DNA of 64,000 bases from Nanobdellota archaeon (GCA_023133595.1 JAGLWF010000003.1:44369-108368), one strand, 5' to 3'. Counted from the stretch's first letter, positions 1,156-35,636 are shown. The notes: a model not told the origin generated them from the sequence alone. A program made the numbers and translations.

Positions 1156-1170
1156 GTACGATTGGTAGAA

Positions 1171-8650: not shown

Positions 8651-8699
8651 AATTTTCTAATAAAGTTTATATAGGTAATCTTATTTAAGAAGTCTGGAG

Positions 8700-19700: not shown

Positions 19701-22700
19701 TGTTGTTAAAGGAATGGCGGCATTATATCTAGGTTCTAGTGATACGCAAGCACCGATGATAACAAACATTGACCTGCGAACCAATAATGGAAAACGCGGA
19801 ATCTATGTTGATGATTTCAGGGAAAATTATAAACGTATCAGAGTTCTAGAAGGAGGGGATGCGAACAATAATATTATGATACAATTGACCGCAGATGCGA
19901 TCGAAGCTGTTGTCTGCAGGTACAGTGAACAGTATCAGAACTTTGCGCAGATGGAGAATGAATTCTATTCATCCGAGTATGCGTTCTATCCAAAATCCCC
20001 ATTCATCAAACTTACAACTGGAACAAGCAAACGTTATTATGTAAGCTGCCGCGACAGCGCAGGCAATACAGCTGCACCGTACACTGTGGAACTTTCTGTT
20101 GACTTTAACGCGCCTGTTGAAATAATTGAGGCCTCTCCTGTTGGTTATGTGAACCAATACCCGATCATCAAGACAACAACTGTGCAGGATGTCGATTGTG
20201 TATATGATACTGCAACATCGACTAACAATCAGATGAAAAAGTATGATATTGCAGATTATTATGGCCATACAAGCGCGTTATTCCCGGGTTCTGTCATTGT
20301 CATCCCCGAGGAAGAAGATCAGACAATAACAGTGAGCTGCGGTTCTGGAGTCAGACAGACTTCTGAGACAATAACATTTGCACTTGACAAGACATTGCCA
20401 ACACTCACAATCACAAGCCCAGAGGATGATGAGGTGCTGGATACTCCGGACTTTGAACTTCGCGGATCAACAGAGATCGGTGTTGAGCTGGATATCTATG
20501 TCAACCGAGCATATCAAGGGAAAGTTGAAGTCTTATTGGACGGAACTTTTGATTCCACTGTTTCACTGGACACTTCTGGAGAGAATGTCATTGATGTAAT
20601 CGCAACAGATAAAGCAGGAAATAAGGTGGAAAAGAGCATTACTGTGACCACAACTTCTGATGCTTCCCGTGTTGTTGCAATATTTCCGTCAGCAGGTCTG
20701 ATTGGAGATCTGTCAGAGATTGTCGCTGTTGTGCGCGGAGAAAGATTCAGTCCGACACGGACAATATTTGACGTGTCAAAGGATGGAGAAACATTCAGCG
20801 GCAATGTGATCTATGATTCTGAAGAGGATGTTCTTGCATTTAAATCTACTTTAGGTTACTTCCCATCTGGAAATTATGAAGCTGAAGTAATCCCTGTTGA
20901 TAGTGATGGAATGCCTGGCTTTGTAAAGCGTGTATCATTCACAGTCGATGTGACACAGCCTAGATTGAGATGGATCTCACCATCATCAGAACGCGCAATA
21001 ATAAATAAACAAAATATACGGGCGGTTGTAGAACTGCAGCCGATATCGAACAGAAGAGTAATTACCCAGGCAGATATATCTGCGAGCAGTGACGGACTAG
21101 ACTTTTCAAAGTTCGACTTTGTCAAGAAAGGAGATCTTTATTATGCAGATCTTAGTCTGGCAGAAGGGGTCAATTATATCCGGATTGATGCTGCAGACCT
21201 TCCAGGCACAGTGCACCATACAAGAACAATTGTTGTTGATTTGCGAGGCGCAAGCGCAGTTATCGAGCCATCAGGCACGATCACAACATCGCGGCCGACA
21301 ATCATTGTCCAATTTTCAGAAGATGTCGAGCTTGTTTCCTTCTCTCTGACAGAGTTTGGCAATGGAGACAGATTCACGCATGCATTGGAATTATCAGATG
21401 CGACCAGCAGAGAGTTTACATTTGATGCAGTATCTCAACTATTATCTGGAAGCTATACTTTCTCGATAACTGTGAAAGATATCAATGGTAATGAAGCAAC
21501 AACAACCCAGAACTTTGTTGTCGACATCGGAGATGTTGTGCAGAAATTAGTGAAACCAAAGAATATGGTCGCTCCAGGAACACCGTTCAATCTCATACTT
21601 GAAACAAACCAGGATGCGAACTGCCGTTACTCGCGCATCTATGACCCGGGTGTGCATAGCTCGATAGGACAATTCACAGGCTTATTTGGCGAGACTGGCG
21701 GAATAAGGCATACAATAAATGAATTCACAAGTGTTGATGCGATCTACCCAGCCACTAATAATATCTATATCTGGTGTGAAGGCTTGACAACATTGAGAGA
21801 ATCGCAGCCAGTACTGTATGCATTCTCTATTGACAAGACCGCGCCCAGGATACTTGACGCTTATGTTGAACCAGATGAAGTTGCAGAATATCCATTGGAG
21901 ACAGAACTCTTTGTCGAGACAGACGAACCAGCAATATGCAAGTATGAGTGTAATAGTGCAACTGCCTCCTACGATTTCATGGATTATGCATTATCAGAAT
22001 CGTACGAAGAGATACAGAGCGGAATTATTGAACTTGAAGATAATACAATGTACTTGTGCAATATAGTATGCGCGAATCTTGCAGGATTGAAATCTGCAGT
22101 CTTGGAAGTTTCGTTTAATGTTGATACTTCATTGGGTGTTGGTCTGCGCATAATAAAGCCTAAAGACGGCGCTGCTTATTCAGAATATACAGTCCCATTA
22201 AAACTCAAGAGCGAGAATATTGCAGAATGTGAATATAGTCTTGATGGTGAAGAGGCAATAAACTTCCCAGACATTGGCCAGTCGTTTGAGATAATGCTTG
22301 AGAACCTGAGTGTTGGAAAGCATGAAGTTACTGTTGACTGTATCTATAGCACTGGAGATGGCAGTATATCATCCACCTTCTATATCGATGATACTCCGCC
22401 TTCTGAGACTGTTGTTAATGTCGGCGATGTCGCGTGCAGTTCAGAGAATATTGATGTGACATGGGAAGGTACCGATAGTGATAGTGGAATCATTGAATAT
22501 GAAGTGGCACTGCGTACAGAGGAATCAGAAGAAGGTGTATATGACGTAAAAGAATTTACATCTGTTGGAAATTCAACAAAACTGCCTCAAGGTTTCTTGC
22601 CAGATCTTGATTCGGAAAGATATGTATTCGGAGTAAAAGCAATGAATCGTGCAGGTCTATGGGGCGAACCAGTTGAAAGTTTGGTCTTCCTGATAGATCC

Positions 22701-24444
22701 AACACTGATAATTTGCATTGACGTGACACCACCAGAGATCACTCTCATGAAACAGCAGATCCCTGCAAAGACAACAATATCCTTATCGTGTGATGATGGA
22801 AATGAAAGCGGCTGCAACCCTGCGATGTTGTATGGTATTGCAGATGATGAGGACATGTGCGTTGCGAACCAGACATATCTAGTCCCAATAGAATTCACAG
22901 AACAGAAATTCTTCTGTTACTGGGCTTCTGACCTTGCAGGCAATGTTGTGGAAGAAACAGAAATTATTGTCATCCTGCCGTCTGAGATTGCTGGTTGTCC
23001 AAATGACCTTGATTGCGACAATATAACAAATGAACGGGACGAGGATATTGATGGCGATGGAATACCTAATTGTGTAGATCCTGATGATGACAATGATGGA
23101 ATTGTGGATTATAATACCGAGACAAACTTTAATGAAGACTTTGACGATGATAATGATGGAATAAATGATGACAGTGACTTTGATGTTGATAATGACCTGG
23201 ATAATGACGGCCTGGCCAATGGAATTGACGATGATATTGATTGTGACGGAATCCTGAACTGTGATGATCCTGACATGGATAATGACGGTTTATTGAATGA
23301 TTGGCTTGATGAGAACAATGGATTATTAGATTCTCCTGACAAAGACAATGATAATGACGGAACAATAGATGTTGATGATCCTGACTTTGGAAAAGCGACT
23401 GTTCCTGATACTGATAATGACTTGGATAATGATGGAATCCTGAATTCAATTGACGATGATATTGACGGTGATGGTATTCTGAATGAAGAGGATAGTGACT
23501 GGGATAATGACGGAGTCCCTAACTGTATGGACATTGACATAGATAATGATGGCAGATCTAATAGCGAAGATCCGGATTATACTGATGATTTTGATGAAGA
23601 TGGAATGCCTAATGACTGGGAAGAAATGTTTGGGCTGGATAAACTTGATTCTCTAGACAAGGAACTTGACAATGACAATGATGGTTTGATAAATGCTGAC
23701 GAATTTCAGTTCAGGACAGACCCTAATAATAAAGACAGTGATAATGATGGATATACAGATTATGATGAATTGTTTGGCTATGATGAACGATATGATCCAA
23801 CAGATCCAGAAAGCAAACCTCCATCGAAATTCCTTTTCATCTTAGTGATGGTTATCATCATCCTGTTGTTAGCTGCTTTTGGTTATTATGGCTACAAATA
23901 TTATTTGGGTTATCAGCAGAAGCGTGAGAAAGAAAAATTAGAAGCTAAACTGAGAGCGCGGCCAGCAACGCGGCGCTTGATGCGCGAAGTCAAGAAGAAA
24001 CCGAAGCCAAAACCAAAAGTTGTGATGCCAAAGGTTGACATTACAAAAGAATTAGAGGGGCGCAAGAAGCTGCGCGAAGAAAGAAGAAGAGCAAAGGTAC
24101 ATGTCAGAGAAAGATTGTTCGGCAAGTTTGGAGCAGGCAGAGGCAGGACGACAAAATTGAAGAAGCCAGAAGAGAAAGTGGGAAGAAAGCCAAAAAAACT
24201 TCCAGAGAGCTTCAGAAAACTTGACCGCATGGTTGGAAAAGGAAAATCTCTTGACGCTTTGATTGCAAAGAGAAAAGGGAAGGTCAAGATGAAGGAGATC
24301 GACCGACTAGGAAAGATAATCGAGAAAAGAGGAGAGCTCAAAAAGTCTGATTTTGATAAATTAATCGCATTAAGCAGTAAATTTTCACCAGAAACAAGAA
24401 AAGTCACAGGAAAGAAGAAAAGGAAAAAATTAAGGAGAATATAA
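13732..24444 (+). CDS. Giant (3570 aa) cell-surface protein: Sec signal, CarbopepD-regulatory-like domains, Cys-rich modules, TSP3-type Ca-binding repeat field, single C-terminal TM helix, ~180-aa polybasic cytoplasmic tail
   Basis: Uninterrupted 10.7-kb ORF. Signal MKYKIVLLLILILAIFTCLSSYVYAS. SGRVTDQSGNPIVGATVTAPSGSSVTDNGGFYTI and SGTVRDTQNRMIED... are carboxypeptidase-regulatory-like folds. The DxDxDG repeat field, TM helix FLFILVMVIIILLLAAFGYYGY and K/R-rich tail are read directly. Confidence 0.8.
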   Translation: MKYKIVLLLILILAIFTCLSSYVYASCCVNEQTSFTSVVNDITCIDNLPLSACPVGYNATVASCSAVPQCGCCVCTPASGGKQVFASGDMRVSNNFCTAFCSQATGDPTHQLIPGLTAAQCSGQIAAQTVSGRVTDQSGNPIVGATVTAPSGSSVTDNGGFYTIGVIAPVTTLNISKSGISTSIQVDTRIRTTGWNVSLTLAARVADLYGKVTPIINNVPSTTPIPNTRIKITDGVNTFNTMTDAVGEYRFIGIPLATYQLTANKCAYFKKQESVTVSAPTTAHNILLQPAPKEIISGTVRDTQNRMIEDVDFIVSPPAGVVTKSDANGRFLITDIDSNCQYSIKATKTPQYSEQSKVVNIYADDFVTTNPLNFVLAPGPAFNFCADIGDCRGEDMRLGSADDCGCPANKICNALTGECDARPIVDCCDFTFQCQPQAAKLAPTPQCAGKTTCANTCAEIIDCPVDEKLSNANVDGVCECSGQLVSVTPSIAELYNIPLASGKYCCPYSSTPITNMTCQAQSKAIVFGTIVSKITQLPIDAAIHVDGSLIPIGYSDAETGEYEIYLTPNTAHTIQFRREPLYLPVIRSVQAFNLKKGVRYRLDAELRTTEILCNYPTNPPVPEFAAEHVKCKPEAKLVWDKDYCRNDIGVQSFAIANVNDDKIYLVDKDQDEFIIKDLEWGETYDFTIQAVYADSNRPRASDPVTISFSAGDADCAGQCDDKEFCLSNTQRRICDNKNKLSSAVSPGSFADCAEHKTAEGTEADWFCAGPNQQGKTVCLMENQCGYDLSSPVPFLGLLFNDLKCSRNLNTGKMNNGCYLDRSTTTVDFCYSCPKPDSEDFNCYTYDSKYACENNRCNLPGDCRWVPTSYFNLGEGICYDYNMISDTKYDQIEAGKEIGSECSECSKQGDLFGNIDCEQDACSKLGLCYSSDEQGTSCFECSEQTACSDFKTRESCISATGEDRRFNLFSSPSAPESAQYSDDACGLGVCAWNEVNGTCYKDGNADGKSDCVSVQFGVESFNSVCARDTHPPTTTPNFDTLILNNMSDDPENIISFNVTEPIERFNYCLHKEGETECTGMYKISGTNTEFVKGYTISFNPVNQFRNIVDSAGNYKIRYFSEDMNKNVELLKETVLYIDPFAPQILIQNSAECLNCEEQLDCYTEDAYVSQFIVSMSADEISVCQAYLIPPGETRATTIYHDIFAVDVITPTTIIYAPETGLPDGNYRFVLECEDIVGNKIEEEHTFKIDSFNLISDPIPTGPVKELGISYDIDTSQVSNCYISIDGREDVIMDQGAGAKRHTLGKAYNINTYHSYRVKCIPKFAINPNRCDTEYYDFAIDNAPPKIKSYINGNEFDELDWTLFMTDPTDLVIIAEDKGIQNSEISFGIDHIAYCTRDDLLTCDPATALDAAKRFGESKIIIPVDKNIKVCYYAVDKGGNKGRIKCGKTLFTPIPDIAIDSPTQDTITDDPRLTVTALHDVSDATEAVISAFDGENSISVSASIIDATVSGTLTSLFPGLNIVYARIKTAGGMWGEDSVDVYYDTEGPVIELTSDRVFEYGDTIEVEAEIVDTHWTAVETPDGSGDVTEASAVIQSMLLTDNFTLLKAGKIFSQSITPILLQNNLYNYLPGEYLITINAKDRFGNIAVDTYNISIVDTSPTEIDVGLDDYGTREENTFYTTSTKPKIQVTTTEPATCELHMISSTPILVEDFWEDETSRAHEYESEHYLEFDTGSVQIFNAMILCTDLFGGNVDEVPIRIVYDDVAPDLALFSTLGTKQIEKEGFVYEITEPGQYGVLSTLITARDLRDNEEIICEYTCNKDENESCDPTTETRAGFMDFGMEEYNAGQIMQINVGSANIIDGEYRLDVNCTDKALNAITKDLVLFFNIQRDMFKIIAAGPSGEITSTAPDVYVLTNLPTSKCEWDKPLAGNVALTPATDKRMNRFFSFTPSGLAVGNYSYTIECAQFDTGNTDSIDVDFSISATGGATGTYVVKGMAALYLGSSDTQAPMITNIDLRTNNGKRGIYVDDFRENYKRIRVLEGGDANNNIMIQLTADAIEAVVCRYSEQYQNFAQMENEFYSSEYAFYPKSPFIKLTTGTSKRYYVSCRDSAGNTAAPYTVELSVDFNAPVEIIEASPVGYVNQYPIIKTTTVQDVDCVYDTATSTNNQMKKYDIADYYGHTSALFPGSVIVIPEEEDQTITVSCGSGVRQTSETITFALDKTLPTLTITSPEDDEVLDTPDFELRGSTEIGVELDIYVNRAYQGKVEVLLDGTFDSTVSLDTSGENVIDVIATDKAGNKVEKSITVTTTSDASRVVAIFPSAGLIGDLSEIVAVVRGERFSPTRTIFDVSKDGETFSGNVIYDSEEDVLAFKSTLGYFPSGNYEAEVIPVDSDGMPGFVKRVSFTVDVTQPRLRWISPSSERAIINKQNIRAVVELQPISNRRVITQADISASSDGLDFSKFDFVKKGDLYYADLSLAEGVNYIRIDAADLPGTVHHTRTIVVDLRGASAVIEPSGTITTSRPTIIVQFSEDVELVSFSLTEFGNGDRFTHALELSDATSREFTFDAVSQLLSGSYTFSITVKDINGNEATTTQNFVVDIGDVVQKLVKPKNMVAPGTPFNLILETNQDANCRYSRIYDPGVHSSIGQFTGLFGETGGIRHTINEFTSVDAIYPATNNIYIWCEGLTTLRESQPVLYAFSIDKTAPRILDAYVEPDEVAEYPLETELFVETDEPAICKYECNSATASYDFMDYALSESYEEIQSGIIELEDNTMYLCNIVCANLAGLKSAVLEVSFNVDTSLGVGLRIIKPKDGAAYSEYTVPLKLKSENIAECEYSLDGEEAINFPDIGQSFEIMLENLSVGKHEVTVDCIYSTGDGSISSTFYIDDTPPSETVVNVGDVACSSENIDVTWEGTDSDSGIIEYEVALRTEESEEGVYDVKEFTSVGNSTKLPQGFLPDLDSERYVFGVKAMNRAGLWGEPVESLVFLIDPTLIICIDVTPPEITLMKQQIPAKTTISLSCDDGNESGCNPAMLYGIADDEDMCVANQTYLVPIEFTEQKFFCYWASDLAGNVVEETEIIVILPSEIAGCPNDLDCDNITNERDEDIDGDGIPNCVDPDDDNDGIVDYNTETNFNEDFDDDNDGINDDSDFDVDNDLDNDGLANGIDDDIDCDGILNCDDPDMDNDGLLNDWLDENNGLLDSPDKDNDNDGTIDVDDPDFGKATVPDTDNDLDNDGILNSIDDDIDGDGILNEEDSDWDNDGVPNCMDIDIDNDGRSNSEDPDYTDDFDEDGMPNDWEEMFGLDKLDSLDKELDNDNDGLINADEFQFRTDPNNKDSDNDGYTDYDELFGYDERYDPTDPESKPPSKFLFILVMVIIILLLAAFGYYGYKYYLGYQQKREKEKLEAKLRARPATRRLMREVKKKPKPKPKVVMPKVDITKELEGRKKLREERRRAKVHVRERLFGKFGAGRGRTTKLKKPEEKVGRKPKKLPESFRKLDRMVGKGKSLDALIAKRKGKVKMKEIDRLGKIIEKRGELKKSDFDKLIALSSKFSPETRKVTGKKKRKKLRRI
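23000..23800 (+). repeat. Tandem thrombospondin-type-3-like Ca-binding repeats (DxDxDGxxDxxD) inside the giant gene; visible at DNA level as reiterated gat aat gat gg(n) units
   Basis: About 15 reiterations of D-N/D-D-G-I/L/V-x-N/D-x-x-D, e.g. DIDGDGIPNCVDPDDDNDGIVDY, DVDNDLDNDGLANGIDDDIDCDGILNCDDPDMDNDGLLND. Confidence 0.6.
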
Positions 24445-24445
24445 A

Positions 24446-24937
24446 ATGAAAAGAGGTCAAGTAGAAGCTAGAGTTGTTATTTATTTACTGGCAGTGTTTA
24501 TTGCGGCTTTGATATTATCTTATGGTTATTTGGCGATAAAAGGATTGATCTCGACACAGGAAGATATTCTGCTTGTCACATTCAAGGAAGATATAAAGAA
24601 TAAAGTGGATGAGAAAAGTTATGAGTTCAGGTCAGTTGAAAAATTATCATTTTCTCTTCCTACAACTTACGATGAGATCTGTTTTGGAGATCTTCGTAAT
24701 ATTGGTGCAGCATTGAATGCAATACCCGCTGGAAAAGTTTTGATCTCAGACAGTATTCGCGATGGGGTGAACCGCAATTTTTTCATTCTCCAGCGCGGAA
24801 AGCTCAAAGACGCGTTTTATATCGGAAAAATTGTTGTTGATGATAATTTTCAATGCTTGGAAGTTGCAAATGGAATGTTAAACTTAGAATTTAGGGCGCT
24901 AGGAAAATCTGGGGTCAAGATCTCTGAATGGACATAA
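24446..24937 (+). CDS. Class III signal peptide (pilin-like) protein, 163 aa
   Basis: MKRGQVEARVVIYLLAVFIAALILSYGYLAI; starts 2 nt after the giant gene's stop. Confidence 0.5.
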   Translation: MKRGQVEARVVIYLLAVFIAALILSYGYLAIKGLISTQEDILLVTFKEDIKNKVDEKSYEFRSVEKLSFSLPTTYDEICFGDLRNIGAALNAIPAGKVLISDSIRDGVNRNFFILQRGKLKDAFYIGKIVVDDNFQCLEVANGMLNLEFRALGKSGVKISEWT

Positions 24938-24938
24938 A

Positions 24939-25973
24939 ATGAAGAATCAAAAAGCAGCAATCGAATTACAGATCAATTGGATATTCGTAATGATCATAGG
25001 AGGGATAATCTTATTTTTCTTTATCGGAGTCGTTGCAAAACAAAGAGGGGTCTCTGAACAAAGGCTTGTGAATGAACTGATCCGAGATATTGATCAATAT
25101 ATCAGCGGTGCGAGTGTTGCGCCGCGCGGTGCTGCTAGCCTGCCAGTACCTGGATATGATATTCAATTTACTTGTGATCATCTGCAGATCAAGAACCAGC
25201 GTTCCCTGCTGGAAAGCCGGGTGGTGTTTGCTCCGGATTATGTTGACAAAGAGGATCGACAGTTGATAGTCTGGGCCCTGCCGTGGGAAATCCCCTACGA
25301 TGTGACCAACTTTCTTTATGCGACAGGTCCAGGCGTACGTTATGTTTTTGTCTATGAAGACGATAAATATGATGATTTTTACTATAATTTTGTGACAGAC
25401 AAGATCAATAAGATAAAGGTCCCTATCAAAGATGCTGGTAGAGTCCTGGATTTTGTGGATGAAGGGAGTTATAGGACCCGGATCGTGATGCTCGGCCAGA
25501 TGGAGCCAGTGCAAGTACCAGCATTTGCAAAGAATAAAGATACTTCTTTTGTATGGATCCCTTTTTTTGATCCACGAGAAAAATTGCCGGCTGGCGAAGT
25601 ATATTTTTTACAGTATAATCCTACAACTGAAGAATTCGAACCAGCAGAATCTAAATTTGTTGGAGTTCCATCTGTGATTGGTGCGGTCTTCAGCAGTTCT
25701 TTAGAAAATTATAATTGCGCAATGGCAAAAGCGTTCAAAAACCTTCACACTGTGAATACAGTATTTGCTAAAAAAGTGGAATTGCTAGGCGCGTCACAGG
25801 TTTGTCCGGCTTTCTATGGAGAGTATGACCGGAATCTCTTGGCAGAGATCTCAGCATATACTGAATACCCCGGGAACTGGCAATTAGATCTTGAAGATTT
25901 GTTGTCAAAAGTTGCTTCCCTCAGACAAAGAAATTTTTTGATTGAGTCACAATCATGTCCATTGATATACTAA
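24939..25973 (+). CDS. Class III signal peptide (pilin-like) protein, 344 aa
   Basis: MKNQKAAIELQINWIFVMIIGGIILFFFIGVV; coupled to its neighbours (2-nt gaps). Confidence 0.5.
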   Translation: MKNQKAAIELQINWIFVMIIGGIILFFFIGVVAKQRGVSEQRLVNELIRDIDQYISGASVAPRGAASLPVPGYDIQFTCDHLQIKNQRSLLESRVVFAPDYVDKEDRQLIVWALPWEIPYDVTNFLYATGPGVRYVFVYEDDKYDDFYYNFVTDKINKIKVPIKDAGRVLDFVDEGSYRTRIVMLGQMEPVQVPAFAKNKDTSFVWIPFFDPREKLPAGEVYFLQYNPTTEEFEPAESKFVGVPSVIGAVFSSSLENYNCAMAKAFKNLHTVNTVFAKKVELLGASQVCPAFYGEYDRNLLAEISAYTEYPGNWQLDLEDLLSKVASLRQRNFLIESQSCPLIY

Positions 25974-25974
25974 A

Positions 25975-26478
25975 ATGAGAAGAAAAAGAAAAAGAGCGCA
26001 GATACAGACACTGGAGACAGTCGCAGTCCTTTTTGTCTTCTTCTTATTGATATCCTTAAGCCTGATATTCTATATGAGCTTTTCAAAAGGACGAGAAGCT
26101 GGAAAGATGGCAGAATTAAGCCACGAGCAAGCAGTACAAGTTGCACAAGTGATCTCAAACCTGCCAGAGATTCGCGCAACACAACAGGCAATACGGGGTG
26201 TGAATACTTTTGATCTTAAACAATTAGAAGCTCTTGAACTAGTGCTGGAGTCGGATCTTGAACTGAGCAAAGGGATATACCAGGAACGTTTTGGCACTAG
26301 CACGATCACAGTGCGCCAGATATTTCCTTCGCCAAAGAACTGGACAATCTATGATAATCCAGAACCCGGTGCAAAGTTCGAGACTCCGTTTTTTATCCCA
26401 GTTGCATTATACAATCCTTTGGATATTCCAGGTGGAAATTATTCATTTGGAATATTAGAAATAGTATTTTACAGTTAA
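25975..26478 (+). CDS. Class III signal peptide (pilin-like) protein, 167 aa
   Basis: MRRKRKRAQIQTLETVAVLFVFFLLISLSLIF. Confidence 0.5.
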   Translation: MRRKRKRAQIQTLETVAVLFVFFLLISLSLIFYMSFSKGREAGKMAELSHEQAVQVAQVISNLPEIRATQQAIRGVNTFDLKQLEALELVLESDLELSKGIYQERFGTSTITVRQIFPSPKNWTIYDNPEPGAKFETPFFIPVALYNPLDIPGGNYSFGILEIVFYS

Positions 26479-26479
26479 G

Positions 26480-26992
26480 ATGAAAAAAGCGCAGATGGAA
26501 ATCATGGGAATGGTTGTGATAGTCCTTATCCTTGTAGTTGCAATGATGTTTGTCCTATTTTTCGCGACACAGGAGAAACCAGGCGAAGGAATAAAAGATT
26601 TTGATGATAAGCTTTATTCATTCAACACTTTGAGCGCAGTGCTGCATACAAATGTTCCTTTCAGGAGCTTGCAGATGCAATCTGTGATCGAGATGTGCAT
26701 GTGGAATGATATCTGGGTTGGACAGGCACATACAATGTCGCCGTGCGAATATGCATCAGCAGGCATAGCAACCATGCTATCGCACTCTTTATCTTATATT
26801 GGCCAGGATTATCATTTTTATGTCTCTACAAATACTGATCCGGATTTTTACAAGATTGATGTGAAAAGCTCTACAGACCCCGCATTATGTGCAGGAGACA
26901 TACAGAGCGCGACGCAACCATTGACATATGCAGGAGGCACAATGTATATCGTCCTTGACATCTGCAGCAAACCACGAGGTGAAATCTCATGA
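26480..26992 (+). CDS. Class III signal peptide (pilin-like) protein, 170 aa
   Basis: MKKAQMEIMGMVVIVLILVVAMMFVLFF. Confidence 0.5.
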   Translation: MKKAQMEIMGMVVIVLILVVAMMFVLFFATQEKPGEGIKDFDDKLYSFNTLSAVLHTNVPFRSLQMQSVIEMCMWNDIWVGQAHTMSPCEYASAGIATMLSHSLSYIGQDYHFYVSTNTDPDFYKIDVKSSTDPALCAGDIQSATQPLTYAGGTMYIVLDICSKPRGEIS

Positions 26993-27102
26993 ATAAGAAT
27001 GGAGAAATTACAACACGAACATTGGTAATCATCATAGCTACATTGGTAGGAATATTCATACTAGCAATGTTATTTTTCAGAACATTCAATATCTTAAAAT
27101 GA
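26989..27102 (+). CDS. Tiny (37 aa) pilin-like ORF, below the ORF-track length cut-off; translationally coupled on both sides (ATGA overlaps)
   Basis: Manual translation: MNKNGEITTRTLVIIIATLVGIFILAMLFFRTFNILK. Start overlaps the upstream stop (tcATGa) and the stop overlaps the downstream start (aaATGa). Confidence 0.4.
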   Translation: MNKNGEITTRTLVIIIATLVGIFILAMLFFRTFNILK

Positions 27103-27986
27103 AGAAGAACAAGAAAGGCGGAATCAGCATTGTCCTTAAAGTCCTAGTCTTATTGATAGTTCTGCTTGCTGCAAGTTTCTTTTTGTTATATTTTGAAGTC
27201 TATGCTGGAGAAAAAGCAACACAAGCAATAGAACCTTGCCTGTGCAGATTGAGTGTTGATAGAGTCGCTGCAACAAAATTTCTCGAAACAGAGAGCAGGT
27301 TTGGTCTGGATTGCGGTACGCGGTTTGTCAACATATATAAAGCGGATGAATATAAAGTTAAAGAAAAAGGAGACCGTATTGATTATCATATTTCAAATAC
27401 AAAAGAGCTGAAAGACGCATTTGCGCGCGAAATAACATTGGGATGCTGGGAGATGGGTGCTGGAGAAGATAATCCATATCCCAACCTGATAACATTGACA
27501 AAAGGAAGAAGCAGCAGGTGCGTGATCACGTCCCAGATAACAGTGGATCAAAAAGTTATCAATTCATTCGGTTCTTCACTTACTGATTTTGAATCTCATC
27601 TGATCAGCTATAGTTTCAGCGAGTGCGGTGTCGCTAAGCAAGCAGGCCAGATATTAGGAGATAAAATCTCTTTTGACACAATAGATATGACCCGAGGAAA
27701 TGTTCCGATCACATTATCTGTTGTCTGGTCAGGCACGATCTCGCCAGATCTTCAGGCAGCGAAAACAATGACAGAACTCGGTCCGAAACTTTATCTTATT
27801 GGAAAAGCACTGCAATACATTCCATATATCAGTGTTGTTGGCAGTGGTTTGCAGGTGGTAGGCAAGGCAGGAGTTGTCGGCGGCATTGGCTATAATCTTG
27901 TGAATATTGACGACGATGTCTATCTTTTCGCAATCGCTATTGGTCCAGCTGACGAGGTTGGAAAGACATGCGGACAATTATACTGA
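27099..27986 (+). CDS. Class III signal peptide (pilin-like) protein, 295 aa
   Basis: MKKNKKGGISIVLKVLVLLIVLLAASFFLLYF. Confidence 0.5.
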   Translation: MKKNKKGGISIVLKVLVLLIVLLAASFFLLYFEVYAGEKATQAIEPCLCRLSVDRVAATKFLETESRFGLDCGTRFVNIYKADEYKVKEKGDRIDYHISNTKELKDAFAREITLGCWEMGAGEDNPYPNLITLTKGRSSRCVITSQITVDQKVINSFGSSLTDFESHLISYSFSECGVAKQAGQILGDKISFDTIDMTRGNVPITLSVVWSGTISPDLQAAKTMTELGPKLYLIGKALQYIPYISVVGSGLQVVGKAGVVGGIGYNLVNIDDDVYLFAIAIGPADEVGKTCGQLY

Positions 27987-27988
27987 AA

Positions 27989-28774
27989 ATGAATAAAAAG
28001 GCTACGATTGGAATGGTATGGAATGTGATCATAGCAATACTTGTAGGAATAGTGGCTTTGATAATCCTGACATTTTTCCTGCAATCCACAGGAGAGGCTG
28101 CAGAACGCCTGCAGGAAGATGTCATGTGCAAGGTCAGTGTGGAGGAAGCTGTACGTAGCGGAGACTGGTGGGGAGATGTAATTAGATGTCCGACAAAGTA
28201 TCATGAACTGAAAAAAGTTAGTGAAGAGGAAGTCAAGAAATTGATTGCGCAGCGCAGTATCACGTGCTGGGATAAGTTCGGAAGAGGAGAGAAATTATTA
28301 TTTGCGCAGGACCCTAAATTGTTCGGCACAGACAAAGCTTCATATTGCAATGTGTGCGATGTGTTTGAATTTGAGAAAGTTAAGCCAATCCTTGAATTTG
28401 GCACTTATCTGACAGGACATAATGTCTCTTCATATTATTCAAAAGAACCGATCAGCCAGTTTGAATTCTTGAATCGTGTAAAGCTAGAGTCGGATGAAAA
28501 GACTGAGCTAGAGAACACTGTGCTGAAACAGGTGGGGATAGATACTGCAAATTCTTATGCAATTGTCTTCATCTATACAAAGGATCCGAAATTCTTTGCA
28601 ATGAAATACTTTCTTGGAGAAGCGAGCAAGAATTATCTGCCAGCAAAGATATATTTCAGCAGTCTGAGCTACATGCTTGGTGATGACGGGCTTGCAGATT
28701 GGGATGCGCGGATAGCCCTGGTGCCTTACAAAAAAGAGCAATTACAGAAGGCTTGCGAGTATCTCGAAGAATAA
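27989..28774 (+). CDS. Class III signal peptide (pilin-like) protein, ~261 aa (start moved to the internal ATG at 27989)
   Basis: MNKKATIGMVWNVIIAILVGIVALIILTFFL. Starting at 27989 removes the overlap with the upstream gene and places the KKA motif at the N-terminus. Confidence 0.45.
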   Translation: MNKKATIGMVWNVIIAILVGIVALIILTFFLQSTGEAAERLQEDVMCKVSVEEAVRSGDWWGDVIRCPTKYHELKKVSEEEVKKLIAQRSITCWDKFGRGEKLLFAQDPKLFGTDKASYCNVCDVFEFEKVKPILEFGTYLTGHNVSSYYSKEPISQFEFLNRVKLESDEKTELENTVLKQVGIDTANSYAIVFIYTKDPKFFAMKYFLGEASKNYLPAKIYFSSLSYMLGDDGLADWDARIALVPYKKEQLQKACEYLEE

Positions 28775-28808
28775 ATTTAAATAGAATGTTTCATTTGATG
28801 GTGTCAAG

Positions 28809-28979
28809 ATGTGGTGGATGTTGCTTAAATCAAACATGAGGGACAATAAAGGAGATATTTCTGTCAAGGCAATTGTCATCATCATAATTGCAATCGCAAT
28901 CCTGGTCTTGCTGCTCTACATGGCAGCAACAAAAGGAAAAGGAATGTTTACTGTGTGGGAAAAAGGCCCGTTTAGCTAA
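28809..28979 (+). CDS. Tiny (56 aa) pilin-like ORF, not in the ORF track
   Basis: Manual translation: MWWMLLKSNMRDNKGDISVKAIVIIIIAIAILVLLLYMAATKGKGMFTVWEKGPFS. NKG followed by an ~18-aa hydrophobic stretch. The overlapping track ORF 28888-29100 in another frame looks spurious. Confidence 0.4.
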   Translation: MWWMLLKSNMRDNKGDISVKAIVIIIIAIAILVLLLYMAATKGKGMFTVWEKGPFS

Positions 28980-28981
28980 AA

Positions 28982-29212
28982 ATGAAGACAATAGATATCA
29001 TCATAGTGCTTATCATTGCATTGCTAGTGATTGTGCTTGTAATGCTGATATTTTTTCCAAAGATAAAGCATACAGACGTAATCTCAGAAGAATTTGTTAA
29101 GAAGACATTAGAAGAACAGACAGCAGCAGAAGCGGATCCAGAGATACTGGCTGGAATCACTACAGCAGTATCTGGTTCTGAGACAGGGATTTTGGTGCTG
29201 GATCCTCTCTGA
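28982..29212 (+). CDS. Small (76 aa) N-terminally membrane-anchored protein within the pilin-like cluster (no canonical [KR][GA] motif)
   Basis: MKTIDIIIVLIIALLVIVLVMLIFF... then an acidic C-terminal half. Confidence 0.35.
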   Translation: MKTIDIIIVLIIALLVIVLVMLIFFPKIKHTDVISEEFVKKTLEEQTAAEADPEILAGITTAVSGSETGILVLDPL

Positions 29213-29281
29213 AGCTATAGCAACATTTATATATGAGAGATACGGCCTGTTATATGGTAATAAGCATAAGAGGTGAACAAG

Positions 29282-29575
29282 ATGCGCAATAAAAAGGGAT
29301 TAGAAATGTCAATGAGTATTGTTGTGATCGCAGTACTGGCAATCCTGGTATTAGTTGTTCTCGCAGTTATTTTTACAACACAAACAGGAAAAGTAGGAAA
29401 AGAAATCCAAGGATGTATTGCAACAGGCGGTCTGTGTAAAGATGCAGCAGAAGGCTGTAACCCTGATACAGAAGTACAGGGTAGAGAAGGAGCATATAAC
29501 TGTCCAGAAGATACTGTGTGCTGCTTTGATAAAAATCTTGCATCAGCAAGAGGCCTGAAGACAGAGCTCATTTGA
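29282..29575 (+). CDS. Small class III signal peptide pilin-like protein (~97 aa) with a Cys-containing C-terminal domain; candidate major or minor pilin subunit
   Basis: MRNKKGLEMSMSIVVIAVLAILVLVVLAVIF, then ...GCIATGGLCKDAAEGCNPD...CPEDTVCC. Start moved to the internal ATG at 29282. Confidence 0.5.
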   Translation: MRNKKGLEMSMSIVVIAVLAILVLVVLAVIFTTQTGKVGKEIQGCIATGGLCKDAAEGCNPDTEVQGREGAYNCPEDTVCCFDKNLASARGLKTELI

Positions 29576-29637
29576 TTTTTATTATTATTTTTCTTTATGA
29601 CAACCTTTATATATGAAACAAACCTATTTTCTAGAAA

Positions 29638-29946
29638 ATGACATATAAAAAGAGGTGCAATAGGAAAGCACAAAATCTTTCTATGCAGGTTGTGGTCATA
29701 ATCATAATTGCAGTGCTTGTGCTCATTGTGGTGGCATTGATGTTTTCTGGCCAGGTATTCAAAGGAAAAAAGGAGATAGATTATATCTCTGCACCGATCG
29801 AATACCAGACAGCATGCCTGAAACAGAACGTACTGCCCTACGCAGAATGTGTTGCAAAATGTAAAGCATGGATTGCAGAGCATCCTGGCGAGCATTTGAA
29901 GAATGCTGTTGTTGATGGTGCGGATTGTTATGTTAAGAAAAAATGA
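29638..29946 (+). CDS. Small class III signal peptide pilin-like protein (102 aa)
   Basis: ...CNRKAQNLSMQVVVIIIIAVLVLIVVALMF; C-terminal domain with 4 Cys. Confidence 0.5.
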   Translation: MTYKKRCNRKAQNLSMQVVVIIIIAVLVLIVVALMFSGQVFKGKKEIDYISAPIEYQTACLKQNVLPYAECVAKCKAWIAEHPGEHLKNAVVDGADCYVKKK

Positions 29947-30638
29947 GAAATAGAAAAGGACAGACTACCTGGATCTCCCAAGAATATATTCTTGTTGTAC
30001 TTGCAGTTGTAGGATTGTTCATCCTGATGACTTTTGGCATTCGTGTGTGCAGCACGATCGAACAAAGCGAGACAAAAGGCAGTTTTGAATCATTCATGGA
30101 TGTCTATGAAGGGATTAACATATTGACAAGCCAGAATCTTACAAAATGCGGTGTTGCGGTCGCTTTCCAGGATAATGAGGCGCTTGTTGGCTTCAGTGCT
30201 GCGCAGGCAAGAGTAAGTCCAAAAATAGGAACTTTGCGAAGCTTGACAAGATGGATCTCTGATACTAGAATCAATAGGCCAGAGGCAGAATACTGTCCTC
30301 CAGCAGTATCTTGCTTGGTGCTATGTAATGTTGAAAGTACGCCAAATGCTGATGATTGCAGAGGCACGTTAAGGTTAGACTCGCGCGAATTTTTCAATGT
30401 ATCTGTGATCAAGCGCAGGGATGGCAATGCGCGGGATATGGTATACTTTGGTGACGAGAAAGCAGAAGTTGAATATTTGACACTTGAAAAGATCGGAACA
30501 GTACCGTACACAATTCATATCTATAAAGGAGATGCGCAGATAAAACCGTGTCAGAGCGCTGTCAAGATTGCTGAGCGCAAGTTCGGAGAGAAACCTAAGT
30601 TCGAGACACCAACAATAGAAGAAATAGATTTATCGTGA
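29943..30638 (+). CDS. Class III signal peptide (pilin-like) protein, 231 aa
   Basis: MRNRKGQTTWISQEYILVVLAVVGLFILMTFG; 4-nt overlap with the upstream gene. Confidence 0.5.
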   Translation: MRNRKGQTTWISQEYILVVLAVVGLFILMTFGIRVCSTIEQSETKGSFESFMDVYEGINILTSQNLTKCGVAVAFQDNEALVGFSAAQARVSPKIGTLRSLTRWISDTRINRPEAEYCPPAVSCLVLCNVESTPNADDCRGTLRLDSREFFNVSVIKRRDGNARDMVYFGDEKAEVEYLTLEKIGTVPYTIHIYKGDAQIKPCQSAVKIAERKFGEKPKFETPTIEEIDLS

Positions 30639-30645
30639 GTCTGAG

Positions 30646-31509
30646 ATGAGATCTAATAAGAGAGGGATAATAAGCGAGCAGTTGTATATTCTATTTGGAA
30701 TTCTCGTTGTTGTTGTTTTTTCAATCAATGCGTACAAGTTTGTGAATGGAATAGCTTCTGAATCTGCAATGCAGCAGCAGTTCGCAGTGCGTGACCTTGC
30801 AATGATAGGAACAACAGCATCTGGAGCACCAGGTACTTTGGCATATGTCTTCTTTATGCAGAATTCGAGGCAAAAAGTTCTGCCAGGGCAATTGTCATTG
30901 GCATTTTATGATCCGAAGACAGAAACTTTCCTGAAATATGCTGAATATTTCTTTACGTATTCAAAAAATCAAAAGTTCCAGAAAAGCAGAAACTTGACAA
31001 ATTCAATGCACATTGTCAGAAACGGGGATGAATTTGCATTCTATAACGCTTATTCCAAGAGCATGGGATCGAAAGATCTTGACTGCCGGAATTATATGCA
31101 GACAAAGACTATCGGAGAGTTTGCGAAAAATAAGATTGTGATCAGCCTTCGCAGTAAGGAAAATTATGTCAAATTAATTGCAGAGAAAATTCATTCTGGA
31201 CTTGGCGGAGGCCTGGCAACAGGACAGAACGTGGTTCTTGATCTGGACGGGACAATGGAGGGAGGAGATATTTTTGTTGTATTAAAAGATGAAAACAAGA
31301 CATCTATAGTTCTTGGAACCCCGACACAGGAGACAAAAAAACTTGGCTGTATGATAAAAGATGAAGTAGGAGCAGCAGAGATTGACCAGGACTATCATTT
31401 GGATCTGATAAATAATCCTGCACTGATCAAGATTCTGGTCAAAATCCCGCAGGGAGAGGATTATTCCTCTGAGATAGCAAGCAGTATACTAGGGTATTAT
31501 CATGAATAA
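30646..31509 (+). CDS. Class III signal peptide (pilin-like) protein, 287 aa
   Basis: MRSNKRGIISEQLYILFGILVVVVFS. Confidence 0.5.
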   Translation: MRSNKRGIISEQLYILFGILVVVVFSINAYKFVNGIASESAMQQQFAVRDLAMIGTTASGAPGTLAYVFFMQNSRQKVLPGQLSLAFYDPKTETFLKYAEYFFTYSKNQKFQKSRNLTNSMHIVRNGDEFAFYNAYSKSMGSKDLDCRNYMQTKTIGEFAKNKIVISLRSKENYVKLIAEKIHSGLGGGLATGQNVVLDLDGTMEGGDIFVVLKDENKTSIVLGTPTQETKKLGCMIKDEVGAAEIDQDYHLDLINNPALIKILVKIPQGEDYSSEIASSILGYYHE

Positions 31510-32005
31510 ACGAGGATTGGCGTTCAATCAGATGATAAAGATTGCTGAATTAGTTTTATTAGTGATAGTATTGATGGCATTATATTTCTGTCTGAGGCAT
31601 GCAGTCTCTACTTTGCACGATACAAGCTCTGCAGAAGCTGTCTCGTATGTAACTAATATTCTTTATTCAAAAGACGGGATAATGTTGTATGATCCTGAAA
31701 TTGACCGAGTGTATCCTGGAATCATTAGTAATTTTGATAGTGCAGTGCTGGATTCTTCAATGAAAGTCAATATCAGCGGAGAGTTCCCAGCTGCAAAATT
31801 AACATTGATTGATGCAAAATCTGGCGGGGAGCAGGTGATCTACTGGAATGAGAAGTGGTACAACCGTCTCAAGGAGAAAATTGGATTCAAGGGAAAAGCC
31901 AGTCCGCATATGCGCACTGAGAATCTTGTTGTGAATGTTGCTCAGCCTGATGGAAGCATATCTTTATCCTATCTGACAATAGAGGTTTTGGTGCCTAGAA
32001 GATGA
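31502..32005 (+). CDS. Class III signal peptide (pilin-like) protein, 167 aa
   Basis: MNKRGLAFNQMIKIAELVLLVIVLMALYF; 8-nt overlap with the upstream gene. Confidence 0.5.
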   Translation: MNKRGLAFNQMIKIAELVLLVIVLMALYFCLRHAVSTLHDTSSAEAVSYVTNILYSKDGIMLYDPEIDRVYPGIISNFDSAVLDSSMKVNISGEFPAAKLTLIDAKSGGEQVIYWNEKWYNRLKEKIGFKGKASPHMRTENLVVNVAQPDGSISLSYLTIEVLVPRR

Positions 32006-32586
32006 GAAAGAACAAAAGAGCTGGAATTGCGAACATGTTCGAGATAATCGGTGCCTCACTATTCATACTTGTCCTGTTCATAATCTTCTGCAGCGGATTT
32101 TTTATTGATTTTAATAGAATAAATGTTATGGTGACTGGAGCAACCATTGGTTATAATCATGATATAACAATGCAGAGTTATCTGCGCGCACCTGTTGAGT
32201 ACAACAATGAGACAATCATAATGCTTGACTTGATAAATATTGCAATTTCTGAAGGTGATTCTACGCTTCTCGAGGCTGAGACACAGAAAATTTTGATACA
32301 ATATGTCTATGATAACAAATTCTGGTATGTTGGTGTGTGGGATATGCAGAGGAGTGATTTTAGTAAAGTATTGAATGAATATGTTGATTATGATGATTTT
32401 GAAGATATAATGGATGAAGATCCAGGCTATGAGATCGGTAACAGCAGGTTGTTGGTGAACATGCACAGGCTTGAACCAAAAGATAAAGGAGAGAATAAAG
32501 AATTGAAATTCACACAGGTCCCGTATTTTTCCAGTGGGGAGAAAAAATTTATGATCTTAGTCTTCCAGGTAGGTGAAGCAAAATGA
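32002..32586 (+). CDS. Class III signal peptide (pilin-like) protein, 194 aa
   Basis: MRKNKRAGIANMFEIIGASLFILVLFIIF; 4-nt overlaps on both sides. Confidence 0.5.
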   Translation: MRKNKRAGIANMFEIIGASLFILVLFIIFCSGFFIDFNRINVMVTGATIGYNHDITMQSYLRAPVEYNNETIIMLDLINIAISEGDSTLLEAETQKILIQYVYDNKFWYVGVWDMQRSDFSKVLNEYVDYDDFEDIMDEDPGYEIGNSRLLVNMHRLEPKDKGENKELKFTQVPYFSSGEKKFMILVFQVGEAK

Positions 32587-33911
32587 ACAAGAAAGGAGTC
32601 TTGAGCATATTTCTGGCTGTGATGACTACTTTTATCATAATCTATGCTTTCATTGTCCTTGGAAATACTGGAAAGATCAATGACAGAATTGTTGGAATGG
32701 ATGCTATTAAATTAGGGGAATTGTATCAGATAGGAGAGGATGCAAGATCATATATTGACAATGCTGCGCATTATTCCAAAGGCCCTGCATTGTATTTATT
32801 TGAGAAAAATGGTTTGTTTCCAGAGTGCGGAGAGATGGAAACATACTTTTTGTGGAAGAATAAGACGCACGAGTGTTATCCAGACGAAAATTCAATCTCT
32901 TTCGGAATACGCAGCGCATTTGCATCGATCATAAACCCATATCTTGAGAATTATTTATTGTACGACATAACCTTGGATTATGTGACTCCTGCTGATCTTA
33001 AGTTCAAGGATTCCGCGATCATGGGATATCCATTTGACAGCCTGGTAGTTAATAATGATCCCTTCTATTCAGTGAGCCAGGGCTTTTCTGTTGATTATGA
33101 TTATCCGTTTGATTATGGTGAGATCCAGAACCATGTTATGCAGATAAATGATCAGTGTAAAGATAAAGAAGGGATGGCATTGAAGAATTGTGTTGACAGC
33201 GAGATAAATAAAGTAAATATTTTTGAATCCCGGAGGAGCAGGGAATGGATTTTTGGAGGCTGTGGCAGTACAGACGAGGCAATGCTGAATGCTTTCGCTG
33301 AAAAATATAATGATTGTGCTTCTTCACATGATTACAAATGTGACTGTCCAAGTGCAGCTTACGATCCCAGGATAAACATACAAGGACAAGTCGCAGTGCT
33401 AGGGAATGAATCTTCTTTGCTCGGCTTGCCGTTCAATGCAGGCGCAATGCTTCCTGGAGCGCGCCTGGTAAAGCAGAAGAATTTCATTGACCTTGCAGTC
33501 TCGGGAGCAGTCAATCCGATATGCCGATCAGATCGCCGTATGTTTCGAGTTTGTGTGAAACAACCATTCCGTGTTCGGATTGGAAATGAGAGGAAACAGT
33601 TGATGACACGGTTTGCATTCTATGTAGATGATGGGTTTGCGCCAGAACCAGTGGTTGTTTCTGAAAGAAATGATAAGAAAGCGTTTGAATGGCTGCCATC
33701 TGGTTCAGCAGATGTGGAAGAGTATCGTGTGTTTGTCTACAAAAAAGGTTTAGTTCCTGATTATTCTACTTATGATATTGTTTTACGGGAAACAAATTCT
33801 GATGAAAAATTATCTTTTATGAAGGATACAACAATTTACGATATAGAAGTGGTCGCTGTAGATTTTGACGGCAATTGCATGATCTCTGGAAAGAAACAAA
33901 AATGCAAATGA
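32583..33911 (+). CDS. Class III signal peptide (pilin-like) protein, 442 aa, Cys-containing extracellular domain; last gene of the array
   Basis: MNKKGVLSIFLAVMTTFIIIYAFIVLGN. Confidence 0.5.
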   Translation: MNKKGVLSIFLAVMTTFIIIYAFIVLGNTGKINDRIVGMDAIKLGELYQIGEDARSYIDNAAHYSKGPALYLFEKNGLFPECGEMETYFLWKNKTHECYPDENSISFGIRSAFASIINPYLENYLLYDITLDYVTPADLKFKDSAIMGYPFDSLVVNNDPFYSVSQGFSVDYDYPFDYGEIQNHVMQINDQCKDKEGMALKNCVDSEINKVNIFESRRSREWIFGGCGSTDEAMLNAFAEKYNDCASSHDYKCDCPSAAYDPRINIQGQVAVLGNESSLLGLPFNAGAMLPGARLVKQKNFIDLAVSGAVNPICRSDRRMFRVCVKQPFRVRIGNERKQLMTRFAFYVDDGFAPEPVVVSERNDKKAFEWLPSGSADVEEYRVFVYKKGLVPDYSTYDIVLRETNSDEKLSFMKDTTIYDIEVVAVDFDGNCMISGKKQKCK

Positions 33912-35611: not shown

Positions 35612-35636
35612 GTTATCACCTTTTGAATTTTTAAGC

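Follow-up and report, generated by a model that had tools for sequence, protein, structure and literature searches.

Within the 64-kb stretch of DNA analysed here (the window), which comes from a tiny symbiotic archaeon of the Woesearchaeota, 16 ORFs occupy positions 24446 to 33911, all on the + strand. This array, together with an ORF at 12284, had been delimited as the unit in an earlier reading (the sequence-only reading). These limits are too narrow, as the conserved block extends from 8700 to 33911 (~25 kb, ~19 genes) and has the gene for a 1194-aa protein (A1194) as its first member. The features of the block are as follows, with a slash marking predicted cleavage sites.

8666..8673, + strand: TTTATATA box, 27 nt 5' of the 1194-aa gene, likely the archaeal promoter of the cluster
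8700..12284, + strand: A1194, Cys-rich secreted protein (41 Cys), Sec-type signal peptide (VASA/F), no Pfam match
12284..13651, + strand: B455, 455-aa pilin-like protein (MKRG/QVTLF), no Pfam or NCBIfam match
13732..24444, + strand: giant surface protein, 3570 aa, Sec signal peptide
24446..24937, + strand: g01, 163 aa, KRG/QVEAR, universal core family
24939..25973, + strand: g02, 344 aa, QKA/AIELQ, universal core family
25975..26478, + strand: g03, 167 aa, KRA/QIQTLET, universal core family
26480..26992, + strand: g04, 170 aa, KKA/QMEIMG, universal core family
26989..27102, + strand: g05, 37 aa, helix-only putative mini-pilin, NG/EITT (RG/E or KG/D in orthologues)
27099..27986, + strand: g06, 295 aa, KKG/GISIV, 7 Cys, paralogue of g07
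27968..28774, + strand: g07, start at 27968 (268 aa) or at the ATG at 27989 (261 aa, MNKKA/TIGMV)
28809..28979, + strand: g08, 56 aa, helix-only putative mini-pilin, NKG/DISVK, TTTAAATA box upstream
28982..29212, + strand: g09, 76 aa, clade-specific, TM segment at the N-terminus but no class III site
29226..29233, + strand: TTTATATA box 5' of g10
29273..29575, + strand: g10, small Cys-rich pilin-like protein, candidate shaft subunit, 97 aa counted from the ATG at 29282 (MRNKKG/LEMSM)
29606..29613, + strand: TTTATATA box, 25 nt 5' of g11
29638..29946, + strand: g11, 102 aa, small Cys-rich pilin-like protein, NRKA/QNLSM, candidate shaft subunit
29943..30638, + strand: g12, 231 aa, RKG/QTTWISQE
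30646..31509, + strand: g13, 287 aa, KRG/IISEQ
31502..32005, + strand: g14, 167 aa, KRG/LAFNQ
32002..32586, + strand: g15, 194 aa, KRA/GIANMFE
32583..33911, + strand: g16, 442 aa, KKG/VLSIF

Orthologues suggest the ATG at 27989 as the start of g07, and also support the longer ORF of g14, whose public annotation begins 10 codons downstream and thereby loses the site. Gaps or overlaps of 1-8 nt had been reported throughout the array; junctions of at most 8 nt or overlaps were found at 12 of 15 positions, the exceptions preceding g08 (34 nt), g10 (~60-69 nt), and g11 (62 nt). The giant gene and g01 are spaced by 1 nt, not the 2 nt given previously. The giant protein combines CarboxypepD_reg, Big_13, fn3, and Glucodextran_B domains with Asp-rich Ca-type repeats, and ends in a TM helix followed by a K/R-rich cytoplasmic tail of ~185 aa, both retained in 16/16 loci examined. 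Being anchored via its own C-terminal TM helix, the giant is not a PilY1-type tip adhesin, a point against the filament reading given below.

The order 1194-aa protein, 455-aa protein, giant, and g01 to g16 is shared by more than 50 Woesearchaeota species, with 54 loci in species-representative genomes distributed across the lineage. The giant gene is always immediately 5' of g01, while A1194 holds the same position in 12 related loci and B455 was present in 27. For g03, 683 protein clusters were found, every one annotated as hypothetical. The locus is a conserved Woesearchaeota-wide system, not a one-off. It occurs once per contig, and identity falls from 83% to ~25% while synteny is retained; together with the flanking housekeeping genes (RNase P p30 and RPA, the latter downstream in several species) and the lack of any relative in IMG/VR, this speaks against an integrated virus or tail-like element, for which the lysin-type domains of relatives could be invoked. 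An archaellum locus and a chance or annotation artefact are likewise disfavoured by these observations, by an N-terminal pattern far exceeding random expectation, and by Pfam searches that detected no archaellin or FlaF/G/H/I/J domains in the cluster. Taken together, we regard this group of explanations as highly improbable.

The window contains 15 copies of the octamer TTTATATA, where 3.8 would be expected, mostly 23-45 nt 5' of gene starts. Each of the genes for A1194, g10, and g11 has this octamer as a TATA box 25-50 nt 5' of its start, and TATA-like boxes also precede the giant gene and g08. Given these boxes inside the cluster, the proposal that one transcript covers more than 20 kb is doubtful. 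Across species, TATA-like boxes were found for 70% and 35% of the two small-pilin families, compared with 0-6% for most other families, and 2-3 copies of the small pilins were encoded per locus. The small pilins (~90 aa), with their own TATA boxes, are probably filament shaft subunits.

Fifteen of the 16 array ORFs encode a short basic leader and a class III site ahead of a hydrophobic stretch of 20-25 residues; in 14, [KR][GA] is followed immediately by a hydrophobic stretch 19 or more residues long. The g05 site, N-G in the window, is R-G or K-G in orthologues. B455 also carries the site (KRG/Q), which reads KS/Q in most orthologues and conforms to K[SG]/Q in 15 of 20 complete ones. Hence, the run of at least 15 consecutive prepilin-type genes plus the 12284 ORF described earlier was recovered for 15 of 16 genes and B455, but is broken once, by g09, where the site is absent in all species (0/10) and only a plain N-terminal TM segment is found. 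Counting cluster genes of at least 50 aa, sites were enriched in the cluster (14/16) relative to other genes of the window (2/47, both positives being dubious; Fisher p = 3.6e-10). The Sec-type secreted proteins encoded in the same window (at 8700, 13732, and 38186) have ordinary n-h-c/AxA signal peptides. Over ~60 loci, family-wise counts of the site were 59/61 for g03, 54/57 for g04, 60/60 for g08-type proteins, 34/34 for g12, 55/60 for g02, and 27/27 for g07, with G, A, or S at -1 and K/R at -2 across families. This strict pattern in 15 unrelated families and more than 50 species, alongside the continuous N-terminal helices of 57-73 residues in AlphaFold2 models, fits class III (prepilin-type) N-termini, from which we infer cleavage. 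Gln at +1 was encoded in the window by B455, g01, g03, g04, g11, and g12, nine families having other residues, and across species by g03 (59/59), g04 (52/54), and g08-type proteins (50/60). Known EppA substrates contain KGQV, KGQI, or RAQI, and +1 Gln is the EppA-type signature of Methanococcus Epd pilins (PMC4371748). Thus, the class III part of the PibD/FlaK-type assignment made by the sequence-only reading is upheld, but with +1 Gln so common, an EppA-like processing enzyme is indicated rather than a generic PibD/FlaK one.

The same N-termini could instead belong to uncleaved type II (N-in, C-out) signal-anchored proteins that form, with the giant, a fixed envelope complex (a coat, S-layer substitute, or pseudo-periplasmic scaffold) and no filament. 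We consider this unlikely. The positive-inside rule would account for K/R, but not for the near-exclusive G, A, or S that follows in 15 unrelated families, and the +1 Gln of g03, g04, and g08-type proteins would be left unexplained. Proteins as short as g05 and g08 (helix-only, 32-41 aa when mature) are implausible as anchors without cargo, and multi-copy, separately promoted small subunits resemble those of a polymer. Consistent with a fixed complex are the mere N-terminal TM segment of g09 and the membrane-anchored giant with its conserved cytoplasmic tail. The absence of a pilin family match also agrees with it: no array protein matched a Pfam or NCBIfam family, and the Pfam profile search for pilin and archaellin N-terminal domains that had been suggested earlier returned no protein. 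Likewise, pilin, archaellin, and class III models (Pfam PF04021, PF07790, and PF01917; NCBIfam) gave no match, including to 39 small-pilin relatives, the only trace of a pilin-type family being a sub-threshold Flp1_like match (E = 0.038). When the small-pilin profile was compared with the PDB, the best two matches were bacterial type IV pilins in register at KKG/, neither significant; for g02, no PDB relative was found.

With the exception of g06 and g07 (hhalign probability 100) and of g08 and g11, the ectodomains were mutually unrelated, suggesting a defined multi-subunit set rather than paralogue expansion. The C-terminus of g08 contains a conserved W.KGPF motif. In the AlphaFold2 models, a long N-terminal helix is followed by globular structure in both g03 (helix 5-61, two short helices, and a 4-stranded antiparallel sheet; pLDDT 87) and g16 (helix 3-75, Cys-rich middle domains, and a C-terminal FN3; pLDDT 92.8). 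The short g05 and g08 are helix-only. No structural similarity of the globular domain to solved pilins was found. The fold of g03 is similar to that of PDC/Cache domains, membrane-anchored extracytoplasmic sensors that are likewise carried on a TM helix, a similarity that would again suit uncleaved anchoring.

In agreement with the sequence-only reading, which had noted no FlaI/PilB, FlaJ/PilC, or prepilin peptidase, Pfam scans of all larger ORFs identified no ATPase, platform protein, or prepilin peptidase in the 64-kb window. The 10 kb further upstream, which bring the coverage to 74 kb of the 300-kb contig, lacked an ATPase, TadC/FlaJ-like protein, and A24 peptidase, and a motif and TM scan of ~60 related loci revealed no ATPase, platform, or peptidase gene. 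That no locus has type IV filament (TFF) machinery within it or nearby is a further point for a fixed envelope complex. The alternative raised by the sequence-only reading, some other type of pilin-like structure at the surface, is conceivable. FlaI/J/K-type genes have been reported for most Woesearchaeota MAGs (PMC11606122), a point for the filament reading.

In many relatives, members of the g16 family carry M23, SLT, glucosaminidase, VanY/M15, Amidase_2, NlpC/P60, or CHAP domains. In 8 other species, the g16 slot is filled by a VanY/M15 or Amidase_2 protein, and a g13 homologue in one related locus (L007) bears an Amidase_3 domain. No murein hydrolase domain was recognisable in the window's own proteins, where g16 ends in FN3. 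Enzyme domains fused straight onto the pilin-like N-module, and the many different pilin-like subunits, whose ectodomains are large and functional, would also suit a short pseudopilus, type II secretion-like or bindosome-like, that exports or displays A1194, the giant, and, in relatives, murein hydrolases. The four-gene core g01-g04 is reminiscent of the GspH-I-J-K quartet. However, no substrate-binding (SBP) or secretin-like domain and no ABC transporter was found in the cluster, the core machinery is equally missing, and small shaft-type pilins that are abundant and separately promoted speak for a genuine filament. A pseudopilus appears rather unlikely, although the data are compatible with either reading.

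Among known systems, the Epd pilus of Methanococcus maripaludis and relatives (archaeal TFF system 1, clade 1; EpdA-E pilins and EppA peptidase) shares K/R-G/A followed by +1 Gln, many different minor pilins, small major pilins without a globular domain, and large adhesin-like proteins, and Epd pilin genes can also lie apart from those for the ATPase and platform. Epd-type system 1 has been reported in some DPANN archaea (PMC4371748, PMC4858521, 10.64898/2026.04.22.720090), and known archaeal type IV pilus loci include some that encode, besides several minor pilins, large adhesins and S-layer-like proteins anchored at the C-terminus (PMC4858521). Unlike Epd, which has ~5, 15-16 putative class III proteins are encoded here in one conserved array without sequence-family matches to known pilins, and the locus contains no clade-1 ATPase, pair of TadC-like genes, or EppA. 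In place of a DUF2341/PilY-like partner there is a giant anchored at its C-terminus, and relatives have hydrolase-bearing subunits. Like the Sulfolobus bindosome (Bas), the locus mounts large ectodomains on a class III signal and hydrophobic helix, away from ATPase and platform genes; in contrast, these are not solute-binding proteins, include murein hydrolases in relatives, and are encoded in one conserved array that is not beside ABC transporters.

In the bacterial fimU-pilVWXY1E operon of Pseudomonas and GspH-I-J-K of the type II secretion system, ~4 minor pilins are encoded beside a very large non-pilin adhesin with a Sec signal, an established arrangement (see the citation in PMC4858521). 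The priming or tip role that we infer here would be alike, but the present proteins are archaeal and unrelated, and the giant is anchored in the cell membrane by a TM helix and basic tail at its C-terminus. 'Murein-like lytic transglycosylase' giants and 'Module 98' families have been described in Woesearchaeota and Pacearchaeota (Castelle et al. 2021, Vigneron et al. 2022). They have in common with the present locus the lineage, hypothetical lineage-specific families, and a link to peptidoglycan hydrolases (interpreted as serving to attack bacterial hosts or to attach to them), whereas the window proteins lack a recognisable hydrolase domain. 'Pili' and 'pilus' are absent from the main text of both papers, as is 'pilin' from that of Castelle et al. 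2021.

We therefore favour, as fairly probable, a Woesearchaeota-specific surface organelle of the TFF kind, an EppA/Epd-type module of pilins, minor pilins, and adhesins that attaches to host cells, with its machinery encoded elsewhere and with cleavage and assembly predicted. The 15-16 proteins would be inserted N-in, an EppA-like prepilin peptidase would cut after [KR][G/A/S] while the hydrophobic N-terminal helix is kept, and an ATPase and platform protein from elsewhere in the genome would assemble the subunits via these helices. The shaft polymer would consist of small subunits with their own promoters, namely the helix-only g05 and g08 and the Cys-rich g10 and g11 (~90 aa). The dozen larger proteins with distinct ectodomains (B455, g01-g04, g06/g07, and g12-g16) may serve as minor pilins in a priming, tip, or base complex, and g01-g04, the giant Ig-domain protein, and secreted Cys-rich A1194 probably share a joint role in adhesion. 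In many relatives, the hydrolase domain of g16 would touch bacterial walls, the subunit here being FN3-ended instead. The block is probably the kit for an undescribed pilus-like attachment organelle, and the hydrolase domains on g16 in related species suggest that this organelle probably contacts bacterial cell walls.

Exact-protein look-ups, together with a degenerate-pattern scan based on the g03 alignment and run over GTDB species representatives, retrieved 54 related loci, all in MAGs of Woesearchaeota or Nanoarchaeia, several of which are mislabelled as 'Methanosarcinales'. Family HMMs recovered an order that was constant almost everywhere: A1194, B455, the giant, g01, g02, g03, g04 and small pilins, then g06/g07, small pilins, g12, g13, g14, g15 and g16. 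Because this order takes in A1194 and B455, the cluster spans 8700-33911, and the array limits of 24446-33911 drawn in the sequence-only reading were too narrow, the conserved order beginning at A1194 (8700). Its components in the window are as follows.

8700-12284: A1194, a 1194-aa Cys-rich secreted protein
12284-13651: B455, a 455-aa pilin-like protein
13732-24444: the giant, a 3570-aa surface protein directly upstream of g01
24446-33911, + strand: g01-g16, the 16 ORFs of the pilin-like array

The cluster is modular: three loci carried the giant and g01-g04 alone, with housekeeping genes next, and another DPANN contig (L007) carried only the second half. In a collection of 5.8 billion proteins, g03 formed 683 clusters at 90% identity, all annotated as 'hypothetical' and without a Pfam domain. 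For g16, there were 206 representatives at 50% identity. Literature searches found no description of such an array. A viral origin was rejected, there being no relative in IMG/VR; the window is archaeal in content, encoding MCM, TBP, RNase P p30, RPA and RadA. Its proteins are found unchanged on NCBI MAG contig DAOVMF010000002.1 (GCA_030630885.1, 300 kb), and its close relatives carry the names Candidatus Woesearchaeota or Nanoarchaeota. Approximately 15 MAGs titled 'uncultured Methanosarcinales archaeon' (including L014, L016, L023, L028, L032 and L035) carry this Woesearchaeota-specific cluster, and these titles are probably mislabelled.

The N-termini were expected to be class III (prepilin-type) in every array ORF. 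This held for 14 of them, in which [KR][GA] immediately precedes a hydrophobic segment 19 or more residues long, and likewise for B455, but not for g09 (28982), where the site was absent in every case, or for g05 (26989, 37 aa), which has NG in the window versus RG or KG in its orthologues. Among genes of at least 50 aa, the pattern occurred in 14/16 cluster genes versus 2/47 elsewhere in the window, both of the latter being doubtful (Fisher p = 3.6e-10). True Sec signal peptides of the window differ, ending VASA-F in A1194 and YVYA-S in the giant. In each family, G, A or S stands directly ahead of the hydrophobic helix, with K or R one position earlier, and the site was retained in 59/61 g03, 54/57 g04, 60/60 g08-type, 27/27 g07 and 34/34 g12 sequences, pointing to an N-terminus under selection. 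Gln predominates at +1, the first residue after the cleavage site, in B455, g01, g03 (59/59), g04 and the g08 and g11 types; the same residue marks the substrates of EppA, the Methanococcus prepilin peptidase (KGQV, KGQI, RAQI; PMC4371748). The pattern is real and strongly conserved, and an EppA/Epd-like class III signal is the best explanation for it. The public annotation of g14 (157 aa) begins ten codons downstream (31502-31531) of the longer N-terminus kept by orthologues; this start is too far downstream and drops the class III site.

Beyond the helix, BLAST and hhalign found the families unrelated apart from g06 and g07, which resemble each other, and the small pilins, so the N-terminus alone is common to fifteen different proteins. 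Paralogue expansion as the origin of the array was ruled out by the same searches. When all array proteins were scanned with Pfam and NCBIfam, none could be assigned to a family and none matched a pilin model in either; the profile check for pilin and archaellin families proposed in the sequence-only reading thus came back empty, and 39 small pilins scanned with Pfam likewise matched no pilin model. Searching PDB sequences with profiles of g02, g03, g13 and the small pilins produced no significant match; the top two hits to the small-pilin profile were bacterial type IV pilins in register at KKG, but these fell short of significance. AF2 modelling from deep alignments gave confident models, including that of g03 (pLDDT 87), with a helix at 5-61, a pair of short helices and an antiparallel sheet of four strands. 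Membership of known pilin families fails by sequence and by fold.

No ATPase, platform protein or A24 peptidase was found within the window, confirming the earlier observation, nor in the next 10 kb upstream, which holds replication genes only, or in any related locus. A motif and TM search of all loci likewise found neither Walker A motifs of secretion ATPases nor GxGD motifs of A24 peptidases, and no polytopic proteins. FlaI/J/K homologues have been reported in most Woesearchaeota MAGs (PMC11606122), and loci of type IV filament (TFF) systems 1 and 4A in some DPANN archaea. An unprocessed, membrane-anchored envelope complex is the main rival explanation and appears unlikely; a pseudopilus or display system, a close variant, is also improbable. 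We consider that the locus probably supplies the subunits and adhesins for a type IV filament-like organelle that is specific to the lineage and is assembled in trans.

The giant, the candidate adhesin of the proposed filament-like organelle, combines a Sec signal peptide with CarboxypepD_reg, Big_13, fn3 and Glucodextran_B domains, followed by Asp-rich calcium-type repeats, a TM helix and a tail of approximately 185 residues that is rich in K/R. The helix and basic tail were present in 16/16 relatives and indicate that the giant is anchored in the archaeon's own membrane. It thereby resembles the large 'S-layer-like' proteins that occur in other archaeal T4P loci (PMC4858521), and, being membrane-anchored, is unlike a PilY1-type tip protein. 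In the C-terminal part of the giant (23800-24444), the tail contains 69 K/R and 22 D/E, with similar length and K/R excess in 16/16 relatives; binding of nucleic acid, lipid or cytoskeleton are possibilities for this cytoplasmic segment.

Small proteins were the commonest class, with two to three per locus; in the window, g05 and g08 are helix-only, and g10 and g11 have approximately 70 mature residues with 5-6 Cys. Junctions in the array had been described as 1-8 nt throughout, and most are indeed 1-nt gaps or 4-8-nt overlaps, but three of 34-69 nt precede g08, g10 and g11. The box TTTATATA occurred in 15 copies in the window versus 3.8 expected, mostly 23-45 nt ahead of gene starts; inside the cluster it lies upstream of A1194, g10 and g11, with TATA-like variants upstream of the giant gene and g08. 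Across loci, such a TATA-like box was found 22-65 nt upstream in 70% and 35% of the two small-pilin HMM families, compared with 0-6% in most other families (giant, 26%; g05, 1/6; g10 HMM, 2/14). Given these separate TATA boxes before small pilins, the single transcript of more than 20 kb suggested earlier is unlikely to be the whole story. We infer that the small pilins are abundant shaft subunits and the tightly coupled larger genes low-copy minor subunits. A 222-aa antisense ORF (29227-29895, - strand) across g10 and g11 was not conserved in orthologous loci and is therefore probably spurious.

Outside the cluster, the window holds the following further features.

6028-6906 (+) and 58589-59191 (-): apparently split ThiI, ferredoxin-like and THUMP domains versus the PP-loop ThiI domain, genes 52 kb apart
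35003-35683 (-) and 35637-37178 (-): two paralogues (39% identical across 110 aa) encoded on the other strand immediately downstream of the cluster, both with hydrophobic N-termini, one with a lipobox-like ...IASC end and one with a weak CARDB match
40298-41974 (+), 44408-45226 (+) and 60753-62357 (-): ORFs of 558, 272 and 534 aa, no Pfam match
47525-48733 (-) and 49061-50521 (-): adjacent sulfatase genes, a carbohydrate-scavenging capacity unusual in a reduced genome
57508-57610 (-): 103-nt tRNA, an Rfam match missed by ARAGORN and so presumably intron-containing, adjoining a LAGLIDADG_3 ORF (56412-57395, -)

Scrutiny of 95 g16-family representatives revealed murein hydrolase domains inserted behind the N-terminal module: Peptidase_M23 (9), SLT (9), glucosaminidase (5), VanY (3), M15 (2), 3D (2), and Amidase_2, NlpC/P60, CHAP and phage lysozyme (1 each). 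The g16 slot of the cluster was occupied by a VanY/M15 protein of 346-373 aa in seven other Woesearchaeota species and by an Amidase_2 protein in one further species, with the same N-module in all eight. In L007, Amidase_3 is carried on a g13 homologue, with an SLT protein next. The window's g16 aligned collinearly with an SLT-bearing relative, skipping the hydrolase segment; the enzyme is thus absent from the window's clade. Woesearchaeota murein hydrolases have been reported and taken to point to bacterial hosts or to predation (PMC8204110, PMC9723730); 'pili' and 'pilus' are absent from the main text of both papers, and 'pilin' from that of PMC8204110. At 1117-2835 (-), L007 carries a tandem duplication of a three-gene unit. 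The unit encodes a small pilin-like protein (FFKNKKLA-SLNLSINAIVILILAI...), a protein of 131-137 aa and a membrane protein of 70 aa, and it adjoins an array of class III-type proteins, among them Amidase_3, VanY and SLT enzymes.

Few uncultured archaea are as widespread as Woesearchaeota, and the locus supplies concrete candidate parts for their contact with hosts: 19 genes, conserved in the lineage, none annotated. [quoted passage not shown] Pilin-like carrier modules are now tied to the earlier 'odd' murein hydrolases of Woesearchaeota, making the bacterial-host hypothesis directly testable. Tentatively, the cluster may encode a Woesearchaeota-wide host-contact organelle not described before, a heteromeric TFF derivative of roughly twelve specialised subunits alongside a giant membrane-anchored fibre. 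Peptidoglycan-cleaving enzymes would be carried directly on its pilin scaffolds, so that it could both attach to bacterial cell walls and open them locally; in the window's clade, the enzyme would have been swapped for a purely binding FN3 module. If true, this organelle would physically underlie the episymbiotic or 'vampiristic' lifestyle that has been proposed.
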